The translations under genes and the position numbers were made by a program. From contig JBEGVZ010000005.1 of the NCBI GenBank assembly GCA_041178085.1, positions 1 through 21,686 on the forward strand: DNA of 21,686 nucleotides. Direction: 5' to 3'. The notes below the pieces were generated by a model. The model searched no databases. It saw nothing but the letters and a program-made list of their open reading frames with translations, and had not been told where the DNA came from. This DNA is from Pseudomonadota bacterium (GTDB lineage Bacteria > Bdellovibrionota_B > Oligoflexia > Oligoflexales > RGVZ01). Position 1 is the stretch's first letter, and the number at the start of each line of letters is the position of its first letter. Shown piece by piece: positions 1,422 through 15,092 of this stretch.

Positions 1422-4400
1422 TCACGGGCAATTCGGGCCTGCCTCCCAGATTTTCCAGATAGCGCTGTAGTAAATATTGTTGTCAGCGGCTCTGTAGCAA
1501 TAGGGATACAGCGTGGTGTTCAGGTCGCAGCTACACTGCGGCGCAACATAGGAATCAGGCTCGATTCGCAGGCGATAGCGCGTCAGATCGGAAGAACTGA
1601 CCAGAAACCCACTCGGCCTGAAGGCTGAATTCTGAATGGCGTTCCACGTCACGTATTCAGCATCCCATAACAAGTTGGGGCTGTTCTCGTAAGTGACCGG
1701 TTTGCTCCAGTCAATAGCATCATAATCGAGAGGGTATCCAAGATCGTCCACTGTGGAGTGGTTTTCGACCAAGTACCATTTGCCAGTACCGTTGTTATTC
1801 TCATCAGTTTGTTCAAATGCGGCACTCCACGTACCACGGAACATTGGTATCACCGCAAATTCAAAGGACATGCCGTTCGGCGCGTAGTTGATTGTGTAAG
1901 CAGTTTGCGGGTCATTCCAGTCATAACGATACTGGCAAGATCCACTCACTTCCGAAGAACTGAAATGTCCCATCGCCGCGCCCCCCATTGAGCCGAACCA
2001 CGGCAGATTTGGAGCGAACCACATGTGCGGTTTTTGGCCTTCATTGGCTGGTATTGCCGACATAATGAACGATTTTCCTGACGGAGACTCGTAGTTGCTA
2101 AAGCCACATTCCTGAGGGCCGTTGAACAAATTATTGAGACCTGATGGCTTCAAGAAAGTGGCTTTCATAGACGTGTAATTTGCAGCTGGATAGAAGTTTT
2201 CCGGATAGCAAAACGTGTGCAGCAGGGCATTCCCAGAATGGGTCGTAGGAGCATTCGTGCCGTCATTAAAAACGACACCCGAGAAAGGCACCTGGAACCG
2301 CTTCATGATTTCGTTTTCAAAAAAGCTTACTTCTGACCTGTCAACTTGATGCCAATTCAGATCTTCTCGCGTAGCCGGGATGTTCTGTTGGTTGCCTACA
2401 TAAGCTGCAATTCTGTCAGTACCGTCGACGGTTTCTACCATCACCATGATGGTGATACCCGCAGCAACTGTCAAAGAGCTGGACGCTGTGTAACCTTCAA
2501 AAGCATGGCCGTGAACCGGAAAATAAAACTGTCCTGGAAGGGGCGAGCGCGAAATATAAGGTTGCTGGTCATCCGAGAAACCTGGCAAATATCCCGCCAC
2601 ATATAAAAACCGGCCCCCGCAGGGCTGCGCAAGACCCAGCACTTTCATTGTTTTCGCAGGTGATGGGGTGCTCGTGTTCCCGCCGCGTGTCGCTGTGGCC
2701 GTGATGGAATAAGAATGGCCTGCCGCGGGCAGGGTCGCATGACCACTCCAAGAATCATAGGCGTTCTCCACAGTCAGGATCAAATCAGTCCCGGCGTATA
2801 CTTTCACCGTGGAAGCATCCTCCGCTCCGTTGCCCGAGATCTCGACGGTCTGCAGATTCGGATTGGTACGGGCAGTGTCTGTGTAAACGTCCACTGTGGC
2901 ACTCGAATTGCCAGCGATCGAAAGGATCGTTGGTGCCACAGGGGTCCCGCTCCCACCACCGCTGGTGTTGGTGAATGTTGCGGACTCCTCTGGCGAGGCG
3001 TTGCCGGCCTCGTCGCAAACAATGGCACGAAGGTAGTTGGTAGTGGGCGCATTGATCGAAACGGAGACCCCCACTGGGGAACTTCCCGCTTTCACAACCG
3101 AACTGTCCGTGGTCGTACAATCAAGTGGCCCGACGTTGCTTCGCGTGTAGCGAATCTCCACGAAATTTCCCGCGGAAGTGTCAGACGCAGATACATTTAC
3201 CACGAAGTCAGCGGAGTATGATTGGCCGCCTTGGTCAAAAACAGGTAGCTGCGGCGCAGATAAGTCCACGATCATCGACACCATCGGACTCTGCTCACTC
3301 GAGTTGCCAGCAGCATCGGTCGCTGTCGCAGACAGACTGTAGCTGCCGGCAGAAAATGCCGCGGTCGGAGTAAAGCTCCATGTTCCCCCACTACTGGCGG
3401 TTGTGGTCCCGAGCACTCCGCCCTGATCGCGTACTGTGACTGTGACAGCAGAATCTGCAGTGCCGGAGATTGTCGGTGTGGTGTCATTTGTATATGCCGG
3501 GAACGTTGTCTTGCTGGCAACGGAGGTGATGACCGGAGCGGATGGCAAGATGACATCGACTGTCAGAGAGAATTCATCCGTCGACGCACTCTGGTTTCCC
3601 GCTTCATCGATAGCCTTGGCCTTGATTTTGTAGGTGCCGGCCGCCAGGTTTGTGGCAGGAGACCATGTCCACGTGCCAGCGCCGCTTGTGGTGACGGTCG
3701 CCAGGACCTGCGCTCCGTTCATCAGTGAGACCGTTGCTCCGGCCTCGGCAGTTCCAGTAAAGACCGGTTTTTGGTTGGAAGTCGTCGCGGGTGAAGTTGC
3801 ATCACCGGCGATGGAGGAGATGACTGGTGTTGCCGGTGCGACGCTGTCGTGGACATAATCGACCAACGGAACACATGCCGACGCTACCCCGTTTACGGCG
3901 GTGTATTTGCCCCGGATTGCCGTAGTGCTGTTTGCCGTGACAGAACCTGCATTGATCGTCAAGGTAGCTCCAGCAGTGACTGGGACTCCGCTCCCGAGTG
4001 ACACGCTGCAGCCGGCGTCACTGTAAATCCCTACTGTGCCACCAGCACCATTGGGTTTGACTTTGACCACCGGGGTTTGGTCTAGGCCTGGGCTTGATGG
4101 CTGGGTCGACACAAAAGAGAGTCTGGGTGTCCGACTGAATGTCGCAGTATTGGATGACTCTGTTTCGTTGCCGGCTACGTCGATTGCGACCATCGAAACC
4201 GTGTAATTCACACCCACTGGCAGGCCTGTGACCGCCACCGAAGTCGATCCGGATTCGACCGCTACCGGCACTCCACCACCGGCAGGCGTGAATTCCAGGC
4301 GATAGGCGACAGCGCCTTGTACCGGTTCGAGTTCAATACCCCCGATTCCGTCCACGAGTTGGGGTGGTAACTGGAACGCCGGAGGTGGAACGGTAAGTTT

Positions 4401-4808
4401 TGAGTATTTCTGGGTTGTCTCAAACATTGGCTTTGAGCCGTCCCCCAAAAAAGAAATGGTCAACGGCACCTCGCCATCTGGAAGGGCACTCAAGTCCAAG
4501 TCCGCCGAAAACGTTCCGTCGCTACCGCTGCATGAAACGGTCAAATTCACCGTCCCGCTGCTATCCGCAATGCGGATCTCGAGCGAACCCTGAATGCAAG
4601 TTCCTGTTATCCGGAAGGTAGCTGAAGTACGCTTGCTGGCATAAGTACCTTCTGGGGGTACAATCCCAGTTGCCTGCTTGATTTGTTCTTCAGACATCGT
4701 GCTGGAAATCGTCGCGCCACGCTTGATTTTTGGCTCGACCTTGCCCTCACCGGCAAGGGAGCATCCCGCCAGAACGACTCCGATAGAAGTGATTGTAATC
4801 CAGCGCAC
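1422..4808 (-). CDS. Giant Ig-like (Big/Fn3/CHB_HEX_C-like) repeat lipoprotein, putative adhesin with an unknown C-terminal domain
   Basis: ORF is open to 4898, but GTG 4808 has GGGAG 7 nt upstream, lies downstream of a perfect sigma28 promoter and gives a clean signal MRWITITSIGVVLAG-C. BapA-like Big repeats (PVFTGTAEAGATV..GTWTWSP..AIDEAGN; PTISGTADS..GTWSFTP..ATDAAGN), a P-F..Y..V..IRYT segment like CHB_HEX_C/Fn3-associated domains, and ~400 aa aromatic/Cys-rich C terminus. Confidence 0.9.
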   Translation of the reverse strand: MRWITITSIGVVLAGCSLAGEGKVEPKIKRGATISSTMSEEQIKQATGIVPPEGTYASKRTSATFRITGTCIQGSLEIRIADSSGTVNLTVSCSGSDGTFSADLDLSALPDGEVPLTISFLGDGSKPMFETTQKYSKLTVPPPAFQLPPQLVDGIGGIELEPVQGAVAYRLEFTPAGGGVPVAVESGSTSVAVTGLPVGVNYTVSMVAIDVAGNETESSNTATFSRTPRLSFVSTQPSSPGLDQTPVVKVKPNGAGGTVGIYSDAGCSVSLGSGVPVTAGATLTINAGSVTANSTTAIRGKYTAVNGVASACVPLVDYVHDSVAPATPVISSIAGDATSPATTSNQKPVFTGTAEAGATVSLMNGAQVLATVTTSGAGTWTWSPATNLAAGTYKIKAKAIDEAGNQSASTDEFSLTVDVILPSAPVITSVASKTTFPAYTNDTTPTISGTADSAVTVTVRDQGGVLGTTTASSGGTWSFTPTAAFSAGSYSLSATATDAAGNSSEQSPMVSMIVDLSAPQLPVFDQGGQSYSADFVVNVSASDTSAGNFVEIRYTRSNVGPLDCTTTDSSVVKAGSSPVGVSVSINAPTTNYLRAIVCDEAGNASPEESATFTNTSGGGSGTPVAPTILSIAGNSSATVDVYTDTARTNPNLQTVEISGNGAEDASTVKVYAGTDLILTVENAYDSWSGHATLPAAGHSYSITATATRGGNTSTPSPAKTMKVLGLAQPCGGRFLYVAGYLPGFSDDQQPYISRSPLPGQFYFPVHGHAFEGYTASSSLTVAAGITIMVMVETVDGTDRIAAYVGNQQNIPATREDLNWHQVDRSEVSFFENEIMKRFQVPFSGVVFNDGTNAPTTHSGNALLHTFCYPENFYPAANYTSMKATFLKPSGLNNLFNGPQECGFSNYESPSGKSFIMSAIPANEGQKPHMWFAPNLPWFGSMGGAAMGHFSSSEVSGSCQYRYDWNDPQTAYTINYAPNGMSFEFAVIPMFRGTWSAAFEQTDENNNGTGKWYLVENHSTVDDLGYPLDYDAIDWSKPVTYENSPNLLWDAEYVTWNAIQNSAFRPSGFLVSSSDLTRYRLRIEPDSYVAPQCSCDLNTTLYPYCYRAADNNIYYSAIWKIWEAGPNCP

Positions 4809-4828
4809 GGTCTTACTCCCATGGAAAA

Positions 4829-4855
4829 TTATCGGCCAAAGATGAGTAATCTTTA
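4829..4855 (-). promoter_or_regulatory. sigma28 (FliA) promoter
   Basis: Minus strand TAAA-GATTACTCATCTTTG(15 nt)-GCCGATAA, an exact match to the consensus TAAA-N15-GCCGATAA. Confidence 0.85.
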
Positions 4856-5081
4856 ATGCCCGAAGACTCGACTGGTCCGACAATAAATCAATTTTCATGG
4901 GTACTTGGCGGAGAGGCCGTCAACAGCTAAGACACAAGGGTTGCAGATGATGGGCGAATGGCAAGTCCAATCGGATCGGTCTTTGGCCATTACGATTTCG
5001 AGAAGTGGGTGTGGTCCCTCGCTGGTAACGCTTGCGAAGTTTGGTTATAATTTGCAGAAAACGTTATCTGGAGGGCATCCC

Positions 5082-6437: not shown

Positions 6438-6463
6438 GCCCCCGGAAGATTTCTTCCGGGGGC
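6438..6463. terminator. GC-rich hairpin after the 5082-6431 gene (terminator or 3' stabiliser)
   Basis: GCCCCCGGAAG-ATTT-CTTCCGGGGGC, 11-bp perfect stem just after the stop; no clear U tract. Confidence 0.6.
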
Positions 6464-6522
6464 TGAATACGCCTGTAATTTTCCAAGCTACCTTGACCTA
6501 AGGTGAAAGTGGTTTTTTTTGC

Positions 6523-6550
6523 TAAAGTTCTGACCTCTACTTTCCGATAA
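6523..6550 (+). promoter_or_regulatory. sigma28-like promoter of the 6596-9221 operon
   Basis: TAAAGTTC...TCCGATAA (TAAA-N16-TCCGATAA), 45 nt upstream of the ATG. Confidence 0.72.
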
Positions 6551-6595
6551 AGTTCGATAATTTGTTACAATTCAGGAAACACCAAGAGGTTTTCC

Positions 6596-7846
6596 ATGCA
6601 AAGACGCAATGCCTTGGGCATCGCCGCGGTGGTTATTTTTTTCGCCGCGATCGACGGTCGCAAATCCAACGCAGGGTCTGATCCGACTCCGACCCCCACG
6701 CCGACACCGGTACTGCCAACGCCGACACCGTTCGTTCCCGCTCCCACACCTCCCGCGTCACGGCAGTTCATGGAATTTGCGGTCACTCCGTTTGCCAACA
6801 TGGAGCACGGCTTCCATATCTTTGAACCTGGCTACCGTGCGGTTTGCGAGGATGGTTCAGGTGTAGTGGCAACTGCTACTTTGACCGTCGATGCAGGCAT
6901 CAACGGCGAGGCGATTGCCGGCAGCGGTGCTTATCCATCCCTGATTATCAGGCCCGTCGCGCAATACATTCGAAGCGGTGCTACTTCGGGAAGTTGCAAC
7001 ATGAGCATCTGCCTCGATTCCAACGCTGCCCAGCCGCAGGCGCGGGCAAGCTGTCAGTCGACCCAGAGCGTGGTCGGCGCGGATGGTGAGCGGGCGACGT
7101 CATGGTCCGGTCAGGTCTCCTATCAGGTGAAGGGGGACACCGTCTCTGTCCAGACGGGCTCACCAGGACTTTCTGCGTGGCATCCCGTGTTTTCCTTTGC
7201 GATGCCAAACAAGGCATTTAAAGACTTCCAGTCCCCGCTGGTCGTTGATTTGAACCGCGATGGCAAGCTGGACCTGGTCAATGTCAACGCCAAAGGCAAG
7301 CCGGTGCGCTTTGACATCAAGCTTGAAGGCAAGAAAGTCCGCACGGGTTGGGTGGGAGCGAAGGATGCTCTCCTTGCCGTGGATTTGAATCATAACGGCA
7401 AGATCGATGATGCTGGTGAATTGTTCGGCGAATACTTCTCTGGCGAAGTGATGGGATCCAAGCCCTATCGCAATGGTTTTGAGGCCCTTTCATCCTATGA
7501 CAGCAACCGTGATGGCACTGTATCGGGACTTGATGGGCAATTTGCTGACTTGCTCGTATGGCAGGACCGCAACCAGGATGGCATCAGCCAGCGTAGTGAA
7601 CTGCGCAGCCTGGAGGCAACTGGCATCAAGACGATAAGCCTGGCTATGAGTTTCCCTATGGAGAACGAGGGCTTGACGAAGAAATTCGAAAAGGTCGCTG
7701 GCAATGAAGTGCGCATCCATGGTGCGATGACCTGGGTGGATGGAGCTCAAGGTCTGGTGGCTGACGTATGGTTCCAGGTTCGCGGGGAGCCCGTGGCGCT
7801 TGACGCCCACAGGAAGTGGCTGACCAGCAAAGGAGTCGTCAAATGA
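6596..7846 (+). CDS. Secreted protein: Pro/Thr linker, 4-Cys domain, C-terminal FrpC-like self-processing module (SPM, EF-hand-like Ca2+ loops), Ser-Pro variant
   Basis: RBS GAGG at 6586-6589; signal peptide; PTPTPTPTP linker. From S213-P214: SPLVVDLNRDG..FD..RTGWV..DALLAVDLNHNGKIDDAGELFGE..NGFEALSSYDSNRDG..FADLLVWQDRNQDGISQRSELRSL..GI, matching the motif order of the Neisseria FrpC SPM as recalled. Confidence 0.85.
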   Translation: MQRRNALGIAAVVIFFAAIDGRKSNAGSDPTPTPTPTPVLPTPTPFVPAPTPPASRQFMEFAVTPFANMEHGFHIFEPGYRAVCEDGSGVVATATLTVDAGINGEAIAGSGAYPSLIIRPVAQYIRSGATSGSCNMSICLDSNAAQPQARASCQSTQSVVGADGERATSWSGQVSYQVKGDTVSVQTGSPGLSAWHPVFSFAMPNKAFKDFQSPLVVDLNRDGKLDLVNVNAKGKPVRFDIKLEGKKVRTGWVGAKDALLAVDLNHNGKIDDAGELFGEYFSGEVMGSKPYRNGFEALSSYDSNRDGTVSGLDGQFADLLVWQDRNQDGISQRSELRSLEATGIKTISLAMSFPMENEGLTKKFEKVAGNEVRIHGAMTWVDGAQGLVADVWFQVRGEPVALDAHRKWLTSKGVVK

Positions 7847-8538
7847 GAAGCGCAAGCCAAAGGATCATTCTGGCAACGGCAGTGTTGGCAGGGGTTTCCC
7901 TGGTGACGGTGGCCTGCCTCAAGAGGAAGTCTGCGGGCAAGGGCGCGCGCATGCTCAGTTTGAACACGACGGTTCAGCGGCAAATTCCTGATGGCTCTGA
8001 TCCGGCACGCTTGTGTGCCTACATTCAAGAAAAAGGTTATTTCCCGTCGAACTCTTATCCGGCAGGCACAAAGGTTTTGTACTCGACTTCTTATGAGATC
8101 GTCGATGATGCGGCCGGTCAGGCTCGCGGTGTGGTTGCTGCCGATGGGACCTTCCAGCAGATTGACAATGTGACGACCCAGCTTCTGCTTTGTCCAGGAG
8201 CCGTGGGCGGCATTCAGGGTGGGCGCTGCCTCTGGAAGATCAACGGCGATGATGGCTACGCACAGCTGGCTTACGATGTTGTTTGCAACAAACGTTCACG
8301 CGGGGGATCCCAGATCCATCCGGGATATTCCACCATGAAGGCGGCTCATGTCGCCTACCAGGCAAGCACGGCAGGGGACACAGTCAGCGGCAGTGACGCG
8401 ATCGAGGTTACCTTGCAGAGCCGTGATTCCCTTGCCCGCATCCTGTTTGCAAAGGGCACGGGCCTGGTAGCTACCCTGTTTCAGGAGTCCTCCCAGCCGG
8501 CGGGTACCGCAGAAGTATTCATAGGAGCCGGGCGTTGA
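7843..8538 (+). CDS. Hypothetical lipoprotein, possibly DUF3108/TapB-like (LolA-like fold)
   Basis: ATG 7843 overlaps the upstream TGA (ATGA); AGGAG at 7831-7835; lipobox VTVA-C. N-terminal GYFP..G...Y and C-terminal FAKGTGLV motifs resemble the DUF3108-like family. Confidence 0.75.
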   Translation: MRSASQRIILATAVLAGVSLVTVACLKRKSAGKGARMLSLNTTVQRQIPDGSDPARLCAYIQEKGYFPSNSYPAGTKVLYSTSYEIVDDAAGQARGVVAADGTFQQIDNVTTQLLLCPGAVGGIQGGRCLWKINGDDGYAQLAYDVVCNKRSRGGSQIHPGYSTMKAAHVAYQASTAGDTVSGSDAIEVTLQSRDSLARILFAKGTGLVATLFQESSQPAGTAEVFIGAGR

Positions 8539-9221
8539 AAATAAGGGGAAAACGGTGCGAGGCTCTTCTGGCCGGTGTTGTATTGCTGACATCTGCTGGA
8601 TGCCTGCCCAAGAAAAGCGATGGTTTCGAAGGGGGCTCCCGTGTCCGGACGCCGCGCCCGTCGCCGACTGCAATGCCAGGTTCCGCTTTGCCACCTGAAC
8701 AAAAATGCAAGGTGGCGGAACTCAGGGGCATCCAGATCGCGGGCGGGACTTCCAACGGCTTGCAGACGGCTTTTGTCGACCAGTCGCAGATGAGCCGAAA
8801 GGTCTTGATCGATTTGTCGCTGGGTCCCTGTACGACTGCCGGTGCACCGCCAGTTAAATTGGAGACTCGTTTCGACATCGATGCCGACTGGGTGACTGCT
8901 TCAGGGGAGAAGCTCTACGACGGTTTCACCCTCCCTTACTCAGTTCTTTCAGGCGGAACAAACCTGGGTAGTGGGAGGCTTGTCCTTCGTCGGGGGCAGG
9001 ACCTTTTTGGCAATGCGGGAGAGAAATACTTCATGCTGGCCAGTGACGTCGCACTGGGAATTCCTGCAGCGACGGAAGCAGCAACTCTGGTCATTGACTT
9101 GTCATCCACCAAAATAAAATCCCGGGACCCTGCGGTCTCCGGGACTTTTCAAGTGCCTCTTTACGTACAGGCCGGTGCGGTCCAGCCGATCAAGGGCATG
9201 GTTTCCGTGCGCGGCCAATAA
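8535..9221 (+). CDS. Hypothetical lipoprotein
   Basis: TTG overlaps the upstream TGA (TTGA); AGGAG at 8523-8527; lipobox TSAG-C; Pro-rich tether then beta-rich domain with a Cys pair. Confidence 0.8.
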   Translation: MKIRGKRCEALLAGVVLLTSAGCLPKKSDGFEGGSRVRTPRPSPTAMPGSALPPEQKCKVAELRGIQIAGGTSNGLQTAFVDQSQMSRKVLIDLSLGPCTTAGAPPVKLETRFDIDADWVTASGEKLYDGFTLPYSVLSGGTNLGSGRLVLRRGQDLFGNAGEKYFMLASDVALGIPAATEAATLVIDLSSTKIKSRDPAVSGTFQVPLYVQAGAVQPIKGMVSVRGQ

Positions 9222-14192: not shown

Positions 14193-15092
14193 ATGAAGAA
14201 TCCGGTGCTCGAAATTTTTGGCTTCCTTGATTACCGGCGCTACCTTGCTGCGGTATACGATGGGCGCAAGGCTTCGCGTGGCTTCAGCTTCCGGGCTTTC
14301 TCGAAGCTGGCTGGTTTCAGTTCTCCGAATTTCATGAAACTTGTCATCGACGGGGAGCGTAACCTCAGTCCCCAAGCAGCAGTAAAAGTGGCGCACGGTT
14401 TAAAGCTCCAAGGACACGCCCTGGAATACTTCAAGGTACTGGTCGCGATGAACCAGACACCAGACGACTCGGAACGTGTTGCCTTGTTGTCGCGCCTGCA
14501 AGCATTAATGCCCCACGGCCGTCGTCGTGAAATCGGTGCCGAGGGTGTCCAGTATTTGAGTTCCTGGCTTTATCCTGTTATCCGCGACCTGATTGCATCG
14601 AATGATTTCCGCGAAGATCCCTATTGGATTTCTCGACGCCTGCGTGGACGCGTTGCCGCCGAAGAAGCTCGTAACGCCATCGCATTTCTTCTTCAGCATG
14701 GTTATGTGCGCCGCAATGACGCCGGTCGCCTTGAGGCAGCCGATGACGTGGTCATTTCGACAGATGAAGTGCGCAGCCTGGCCGTGCGGTCCTACCACAG
14801 GGCGATGCTGGGTGAAGCGATTGAAGCCCTCTCAAGTGTCGCGGTGGAGGAACGCGAGTATGGCGCTCTTACGGTCGCTATCCCACGCGCGGCGCTGCCT
14901 GAGTTGAAGTCGCGGATCAAGGCGTTCAGGAAGGAACTGCATACCTGGATCATGGCCCAGGCAGCGACGAATGGCGTTCAACCGGACAACGAGATAATCC
15001 AGTTAAACATCCAGATGTTTCCGCATACCGGGCAGGGATCGTCAAAAACGACTGGCTCGGAAGAGGAAGAAGCGAAAGGGGCCGTGGCATGA
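14193..15092 (+). CDS. TIGR02147 family (HTH + DUF4423) putative DNA-binding regulator
   Basis: Hallmark sequences DYRRYL..FSFRAFSKLAGFSSPNFMKLVIDGERNLS, YLSSWLYPVIRDL, VRSYHRAML..A.EAL and QLNIQMFP. Confidence 0.92.
   Translation: MKNPVLEIFGFLDYRRYLAAVYDGRKASRGFSFRAFSKLAGFSSPNFMKLVIDGERNLSPQAAVKVAHGLKLQGHALEYFKVLVAMNQTPDDSERVALLSRLQALMPHGRRREIGAEGVQYLSSWLYPVIRDLIASNDFREDPYWISRRLRGRVAAEEARNAIAFLLQHGYVRRNDAGRLEAADDVVISTDEVRSLAVRSYHRAMLGEAIEALSSVAVEEREYGALTVAIPRAALPELKSRIKAFRKELHTWIMAQAATNGVQPDNEIIQLNIQMFPHTGQGSSKTTGSEEEEAKGAVA

Follow-up and report, generated by a model that had tools for sequence, protein, structure and literature searches.

The self-processing module (SPM) found in the Neisseria meningitidis proteins FrpC and FrpA and in Actinobacillus ApxIVA (PDB 6SJW and 6SJX) stands directly behind a passenger and starts at a Pro. 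In FrpC the Asp-Pro bond at this point is strained (PMC7078468), replacement of its Asp (D414A) abolishes cleavage (PMC7846742), and FrpC1-414 is bound by the lipoprotein FrpD (PMC5233953); here and below, statements on published work refer to the parts of the cited papers that were available. In those parts, two reviews (PMC3034196 and PMC13733248) describe the processing as Asp-Pro only, the table of the second using the wording 'Asp-Pro subtype' and naming no other, and the homologue panel of PMC12538545 consists of Neisseriaceae modules whose alignment rows start with Asp-Pro. Here we describe an operon on a 21,686-nt stretch of DNA from an Oligoflexales bacterium (assembly GCA_041178085.1, contig JBEGVZ010000005.1, positions 1 to 21,686, forward strand; hereafter the window), in which gene 1 encodes a predicted exported protein with an SPM whose Pro is preceded by Ser. 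No description of a Ser/Thr/Cys type of SPM was found in the literature searched, the scope of which left aside some primary FrpC mutational papers, and modules of this type form a large class that is apparently undescribed.

Residues 214-399 of the gene 1 product match the FrpC SPM in sequence (phmmer, E 5.2e-26), with Pro214 aligned to residue 1 of 6SJW, which is Pro415 of FrpC. The predicted structure of the module matches the FrpC SPM both by Foldseek (E 6e-15), the check that an earlier, sequence-only reading of this DNA had proposed for its SPM assignment, and by VIA-align (Z 21.9, root-mean-square deviation 2.7 Å, 162 aligned residues; the next match has Z 3.7), and the assignment is thus upheld. 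The search for gene 1 homologues gave 54 matches from 8000 scored candidates, 35 of them covering at least 72% of the query, and 30 of the 54 together with the query make up the 31 full-length rows in which conservation was assessed. Ser213-Pro214 is invariant in all 31 rows and Gln212 is present in 30, so that the Asp-to-Ser replacement noted in the same reading is real; a sequencing error or a one-off mutation is ruled out by the invariance of Ser in the orthologues. With the residue roles given for FrpC in PMC7078468, the port and fifth-calcium residues W252, L276, G278, E279, G294 and D390 correspond to FrpC W451, L475, G477, D478, G491 and D579, that is, Glu279 replaces D478 and Asp390 is the D579 equivalent. 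All six are invariant in the 31 rows and the Trp pair of FrpC is also kept. Judged by the alignment, the four EF-hand-like calcium sites of FrpC are kept as well, with the equivalents D218/N220/D222/D257, D263-E275, D302-D313 and D324-E335. Since the anhydride-forming Asp414 of the defining Asp-Pro pair is replaced by Ser213 (codon TCC, 7232-7234, followed by CCG for Pro214 at 7235-7237) and D414A abolishes cleavage, the FrpC chemistry as written is impossible in this module.

Table 1. Features of the operon, with positions in the window.
Feature	Position	Strand	Basis or remark
sigma28 (FliA)-type promoter, TAAA-N16-TCCGATAA	6523..6550	+	Motif count, FliA gene, upstream boxes at homologous loci
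Gene 1, 416 aa, predicted Sec-exported passenger-SPM protein (P0001)	6596..7846	+	Open reading frame, homologues, model
Predicted signal peptide, aa 1-26, SNA-G site	6596..6673	+	Sequence and orthologue AxA-G site
Pro/Thr-rich stalk, aa 30-54	6683..6757	+	Sequence; length variable in orthologues; low pLDDT
Passenger beta-sandwich domain, aa 57-209	6764..7222	+	Predicted model
Gln212-Ser213-Pro214 junction	7229..7237	+	Ser213 at the FrpC Asp414 position
SPM-fold domain, aa 214-399, four Ca2+ loops and FrpC port residues	7235..7792	+	
Gene 2 (core partner), 231 aa, predicted lipoprotein with Cys25 and an open beta-sheet resembling LolA/LppX	7843..8538	+	
Gene 3, 228 aa, TTG start, predicted lipoprotein (Cys23), broad Oligoflexales family, accessory	8535..9221	+	

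The replacement is no rarity of this operon. An SPM match is found in 62 of the 131 genomes of the class Oligoflexia, and the 96 distinct domains, nearly all of them C-terminal, comprise 91 Ser-Pro and 5 Thr-Pro modules (3 further domains without an aligned start were left out). The Ser codons are TCN in 56 cases and AGY in 35. Among the 99 SPM genes of the class, 71 have a downstream gene on the same strand, and 56 of these 71 encode a lipobox, against a baseline of 317 of 2202 open reading frames (14%) genome-wide under the same rough rule. Several other passenger families of the class (L024, L026-L030 and L309-L372), some with more than 1,000 residues, carry a Ser-Pro module at the end and have lipoprotein families of their own downstream. 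The host genome itself (3.0 Mb, 96% complete) holds a single SPM copy.

Homologues of the SPM carry the precomputed tag PF26745, and an SPM profile retrieves 24,392 cluster representatives at E ≤1e-10. For a taxon-based sample we took the Pro as the first position of the profile, which is hence blind to the residue before it, searching 401 genomes of Pseudomonadota, 151 of Acidobacteriota and 151 of Myxococcota; 129, 24 and 11 distinct domains were examined, from 153, 46 and 13 places, respectively. The 161 domains with the Pro have Asp before it in 108 cases, Ser in 26, Thr in 18, Cys in 4 and another residue in 5, so that in these three phyla, too, Ser, Thr or Cys takes the position in 48 of 161 SPMs. 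One domain set had been found with a single protein query and is biased towards ELFGNH-type modules; it was therefore excluded from this count.

Of 621 distinct domains in the pooled set, 343 combine the Pro with an FrpC-type port and 209 combine it with a divergent one; the Pro is missing from 41, and 28 are left unclassified. The residue before Pro differs between the first two groups. With the FrpC-type port it is Asp in 146, Ser in 135, Thr in 36, Cys in 14, Pro in 10 and Glu and Gly in 1 each, which leaves Asp/Ser/Thr/Cys in 331 of the 343 and neither Ala nor Asn in any; the position just upstream is unrestricted and shows all 20 residues. With a divergent port it is Ala in 73, Pro in 47, Ser in 32, Thr in 20, Leu in 15, Gly in 8, Asp in 3 and others in 11, and Asp, Ser, Thr and Cys together make up 55 of the 209. 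On a FastTree phylogeny of 331 port-type domains, calculated without the port columns, the residue changes 52 times and never to Ala (8 changes involve Cys, 23 Thr and 19 Asp); the restriction is therefore not one inherited event. On the tree of 207 divergent-port domains, Ala changes 45 times. Where both domain types occur in one protein, the port-type module comes first in 33 of 34 cases (D-P 21, S-P 11, C-P 1 and T-V 1), which shows that Ser and Cys modules fill the same slot as Asp modules. In addition, 4 of the 7 RTX (repeats-in-toxin)-type Cys-Pro proteins checked have no other Cys in 914-1594 residues. The Ser/Thr/Cys class also preserves the port residues better than the Asp class does: the G477 equivalent is present in 182 of 185 modules of the former and in 60 of 146 of the latter. 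At the D579-equivalent position, Asp is found in 171 of 172 modules of the Ser/Thr/Cys class and in 33 of 127 of the Asp class. We rejected this co-variation as a sign of catalysis, since 190 of 195 divergent-port copies have Asp there too and an independent-pairs test of the link, with 5 supported pairs, did not reach significance (median p 1 and 0.5).

Several further kinds of module were seen in these sets. In the giant RTX proteins P0094-P0242, the C-terminal end frequently consists of two or three tandem copies of the SPM fold whose port is of the E[IL]SF type; such tandem copies, in which the residue before Pro is arbitrary, probably form a non-cleaving structural class. Ten port-type modules (P0098, P0106, P0142, P0149, P0162, P0169 and P0170 among the labels) have Pro-Pro; one position earlier there is Ser or Thr in 7 and Asp in 1, a possible shifted-register variant. 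A large Asp-Pro group in the Pseudomonadota sample (L133-L226) combines Ser in place of G477 with Glu in place of D579; its Asp is often preceded by Gly, a context described in the available literature as poorly cleaved in FrpC fusions. Cys-Pro modules of cyanobacterial RTX proteins are found in L073-L075, L078, L081, L082 and L084, and several of these proteins contain no further Cys.

The passenger in front of the Ser-Pro module ends in a conserved HP-x-F-x-FAAP tail. Of its four cysteines, which the sequence-only reading had pointed out, C139 and C153 occur in every one of the 31 rows, whereas C84 and C134 occur in 27 and are missing together from the other 4; kept or lost as pairs, they are likely to form two disulfides. 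No Pfam, NCBIfam or Atlas family matches the passenger, a structure search with the whole protein gave weak Ig-like matches (Z ≤3.7), and neither the family scans nor the structure search gave an enzyme match. The model of gene 1 holds both domains in one chain, with a predicted local distance difference test score (pLDDT) of 80. The AxA-G cleavage site behind the N-terminal signal-like segment is conserved among orthologues, and from this site and the sequence itself we infer export by Sec; more distant homologues have a lipobox instead and are themselves lipoproteins. Tat export was rejected, the RR of the n-region not being conserved in orthologues. The features of RTX proteins secreted by the type I route, C-terminal nonapeptide repeats and lack of a signal peptide, are absent. 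In agreement with the sequence-only reading, the RTX repeat (PF00353) was found neither in the gene 1 protein nor in the 96%-complete genome.

The three reading frames are joined by four-base overlaps, ATGA between genes 1 and 2 and TTGA between genes 2 and 3, with AGGAG 5' of each, the very arrangement of coupled genes with their own ribosome-binding sites that had been read from the DNA. The exact overlaps are not kept: the gap from gene 1 orthologues to the next gene ranges from -4 to +62 nt. Both downstream genes were called lipoprotein genes in the sequence-only reading, and the lipobox Cys is conserved in both families (for gene 2, Cys25 in 90% or more of 34 rows; for gene 3, Cys23 in 10 of 10). 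The operon is also covered by contigs of a close strain from 4 runs of a single study, for which no indel is listed; their differences from the window lie mostly at 7405-7719, inside the module, possibly a recombined patch.

A search of the 131 genomes of the class gave 17 matches of the gene 2 family in 16 genomes. Fifteen of the 17 lie next to a homologue of gene 1. Of the other two, one is divided by contig ends, and one has three stops and no SPM listed on its contig. Seen from the other side, the best 16 gene 1 matches have an adjacent gene 2 partner in 15 cases, two more distant loci have weak partner matches (E 8e-7 and 2e-5 with the database size set to 300), and at six other distant loci the partners show no match to the gene 2 profile. 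Gene 3 behaves differently; its family occurs in 46 of the 131 genomes and is adjacent in just 10 of 67 places, all ten in the window's family, and a three-gene core was rejected for this reason. The unit is a conserved two-gene core (genes 1 and 2) with a clade-restricted accessory gene 3. Thus, of the co-conserved three-gene operon that had been proposed, and of the lipoprotein pair for which a neighbourhood survey had been advised, the first lipoprotein recurs with gene 1 and the second does not. Genes 2 and 3 have no detectable homology to each other (hhalign probability 6%), and the idea that gene 3 is a split-off anchor of the longer lipoprotein forms was dropped, the match being weak and to the signal/stalk region alone (E 0.014). 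Six genomes of the same genus (77-100% complete) have no match to any of genes 1-3; in a sister genus, full-length gene 1 is present in 11 of 14 genomes. A stand-alone paralogue of gene 3, 26% identical, lies elsewhere in the host genome (G000:C104:59394-60116).

The model of gene 2 (pLDDT 84) has sheets of the LolA/LppX/LprG type as its top matches (Z 6-7.2). The best Z of 7.2 is within the range of common arrangements and there is no Foldseek match at E ≤0.001, so that the weak LolA/LppX-like character of the predicted fold is suggestive only. The sequence-only reading's comparison with FrpC and its co-encoded lipoprotein is supported as far as co-conservation goes; FrpD is not among the matches listed for gene 2.

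For the biochemical role of Ser213 we favour, with a probability of about 45%, a calcium-triggered acyl shift at Gln212-Ser213, by which the passenger would be released or transferred and then retained by the gene 2 lipoprotein. Transcription of the operon would depend on sigma28 and fall in the motile phase, and export of the protein would be by Sec. Calcium would fold the module and so put strain on the Gln212-Ser213-Pro214 turn; the Ser213 hydroxyl would then attack the preceding carbonyl through a five-membered ring (an N-to-O acyl shift) to give a Gln212 ester, and hydrolysis of this ester, or its capture by a nearby nucleophile, would free the passenger and leave a module starting at Ser213. 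At the membrane, the gene 2 lipoprotein would bind the passenger, by analogy with FrpD holding FrpC1-414. Acyl-shift chemistry is known from inteins and from SEA and GAIN domains. In a five-membered-ring attack on the backbone, Asp reaches its own carbonyl, and Ser, Thr and Cys reach the preceding one. The acyl shift is favoured because these four are the side chains by which a carbonyl can be attacked in this way. The Ser/Thr/Cys triad, the lack of Ala and Asn and the lone Cys suggest real comparative support for it, and a Ser/Thr/Cys nucleophile at the site is a feature that the class has in common with acyl-shift domains. Also in favour of the proposed scheme are the repeated changes at the site, the two codon sets used for Ser in Oligoflexia, the slot shared with Asp modules, the well-kept port residues, the conserved gene pair and the binding of FrpC1-414 by FrpD.

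A number of points weigh against the acyl shift. The strain in FrpC is at Asp-Pro, one bond downstream of the acyl-shift site (PMC7078468), and D414A abolishes FrpC cleavage (PMC7846742). Across the Ser/Thr/Cys class there is no conserved His or other base next to the site. Before Pro, the same four residues (Asp, Ser, Thr and Cys) also act as turn caps. Of the 14 Cys-Pro cases, five are in segments rich in Cys, where the residue may be part of a disulfide; of the four lone-Cys proteins, three come from cyanobacteria, and two of these three belong to one lineage. D579 provides no argument for catalysis, as it is kept in divergent-port copies and the pairs test did not reach significance. Finally, the port classes behind the contrast at the site were defined after data inspection, and a single list of 149 related, giant multi-domain proteins supplied 198 of the 209 divergent-port domains.

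The main rival, possible though doubtful, is that nothing is cleaved: the module would fold with calcium into a stable domain, the protein being exported or located at the surface, the intact two-domain protein would bind the lipoprotein, and Ser/Thr/Cys would merely cap the tight turn before Pro or help to bind the fifth calcium. The missing catalytic Asp, with the effect of D414A in FrpC (PMC7846742), speaks for this explanation. An arbitrary residue before Pro is common among the copies, which retain both D579 and the fold, Ser and Thr are frequent in divergent-port copies too (52 of 209), and the gene 1 model, as said, has both domains in one chain. Against it stand the absence of Ala from all 343 port-type domains, when it is the commonest residue in the divergent-port ones, and that of Asn, a normal capping partner of Asp, as well as the lone Cys that has arisen at the site and the finding that behind the passenger Ser and Cys modules take the very slot of the Asp modules. 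Cleavage might also take place at the same bond as in FrpC, here Ser213-Pro214, if water or an outside nucleophile attacked the calcium-twisted amide with the Ser hydroxyl helping or holding it in position, a clip without an anhydride. Although Pro214 and the fifth-calcium ligands E279 and D390 are invariant in 31 rows and the FrpC strain is centred on this very bond (PMC7078468), we consider this route quite improbable, since a Ser side chain would need a four-membered ring to reach its own carbonyl, on chemical reasoning, and plain hydrolysis leaves the exclusion of Ala and Gly unexplained.

Whatever the chemistry, the passenger could be an antibacterial effector and the downstream lipoprotein its immunity protein rather than an anchor. 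The strict downstream coupling of the partner gene would fit such a pair, as would the AHH nuclease or LysM domain found ahead of the module in some Ser-Pro RTX proteins, with 2 of the 24 scanned passengers having one. Nevertheless, the passenger here has no enzyme match, and both it and its partner show high conservation between genera (46-82% identity for the partner), unlike polymorphic toxin-immunity pairs; this explanation is very improbable. At the other end, the acyl shift could be one instance of something broader. Ser/Thr/Cys-Pro might be a second widespread clip-and-link chemistry, in which a Ca2+-triggered ester or thioester ligates the passenger covalently, either with a partner lipoprotein or with a foreign surface, and which in Oligoflexia would serve as a general sigma28-phase route attaching varied cargo to dedicated lipoproteins; we regard this extension as rather unlikely.

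The sigma28-like promoter of the sequence-only reading has support from several sides. Boxes of this type occur twice in the window, the one upstream of gene 1 included, against 0.01 expected, and 15 times genome-wide, and the genome has a FliA gene over the cut-off together with 8 flagellin-domain matches. A CCGATA box lies 46-81 nt 5' of the gene at 10 of 19 homologous loci, with gene starts set by eye, and the complete TAAA half-site, by the pattern used here, at 3 of the 19. In Bdellovibrio, a sigma28-type motif marks 92 of 140 attack-phase promoters according to the available part of PMC3627812. Upstream of the promoter, a perfect GC-rich inverted repeat (6439-6464) follows the neighbouring lipoprotein gene and likely divides the two units; it was not listed by the terminator scan. 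The second sigma28 box (4829-4855, minus strand) overlaps the first codons of the longest frame for a 1158-aa Ig-repeat protein (1422-4898, minus strand), and the true start of that gene is therefore probably further in, at a lipoprotein-like signal. Farther away, a gene of the TIGR02147/DUF4423 family (14193-15092) overlaps a predicted lipoprotein gene.

All SPMs tested in the literature covered cleave Asp-Pro. If Ser/Thr/Cys modules cleave as well, a large class of secreted bacterial proteins would be processed by an undescribed calcium-triggered reaction, and protein ligation and scarless tag removal would gain a genetically encoded ester or thioester that calcium can induce, as a complement to the anhydride-based NeissLock. 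The gene 1 product, a 43 kDa non-RTX protein from an environmental bacterium, makes a small and convenient test case. If there is no cleavage, the work would still define a surface module of two genes, conserved in an order on which there has been hardly any study.

Compared with known systems, the gene 2 model shares the open beta-sheet of the LolA/LolB/LppX/LprG superfamily (Z 6-7.2), but without a sequence match and with a Z below the level separating relatives from common arrangements. With inteins, Hedgehog/Hint, SEA and GAIN domains and Ntn hydrolases, the modules have in common the Ser/Thr/Cys interchange behind a strained turn; they differ from these in their unrelated fold, calcium trigger, invariant following Pro and lack of a conserved His. 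The GAIN domain has an H-X-S/T motif (PMC13062082). As in the FrpD-FrpC operon, a lipoprotein is co-encoded beside the SPM protein; however, gene 2 lies downstream of the SPM gene, whereas frpD lies upstream, the predicted fold of the gene 2 product is LolA/LppX-like, and control is apparently by sigma28 here and by iron there. Unlike FrpC-type proteins, the gene 1 product has no RTX repeats, is predicted to leave by the Sec/lipoprotein route rather than by type I secretion, and carries its module at the C terminus, with Ser for the anhydride-forming Asp and Glu for D478. With the SPMs of FrpC, FrpA and ApxIVA it nevertheless shares the fold, the Pro start, the four calcium loops, the Trp pair, the port residues and the place directly behind the passenger.

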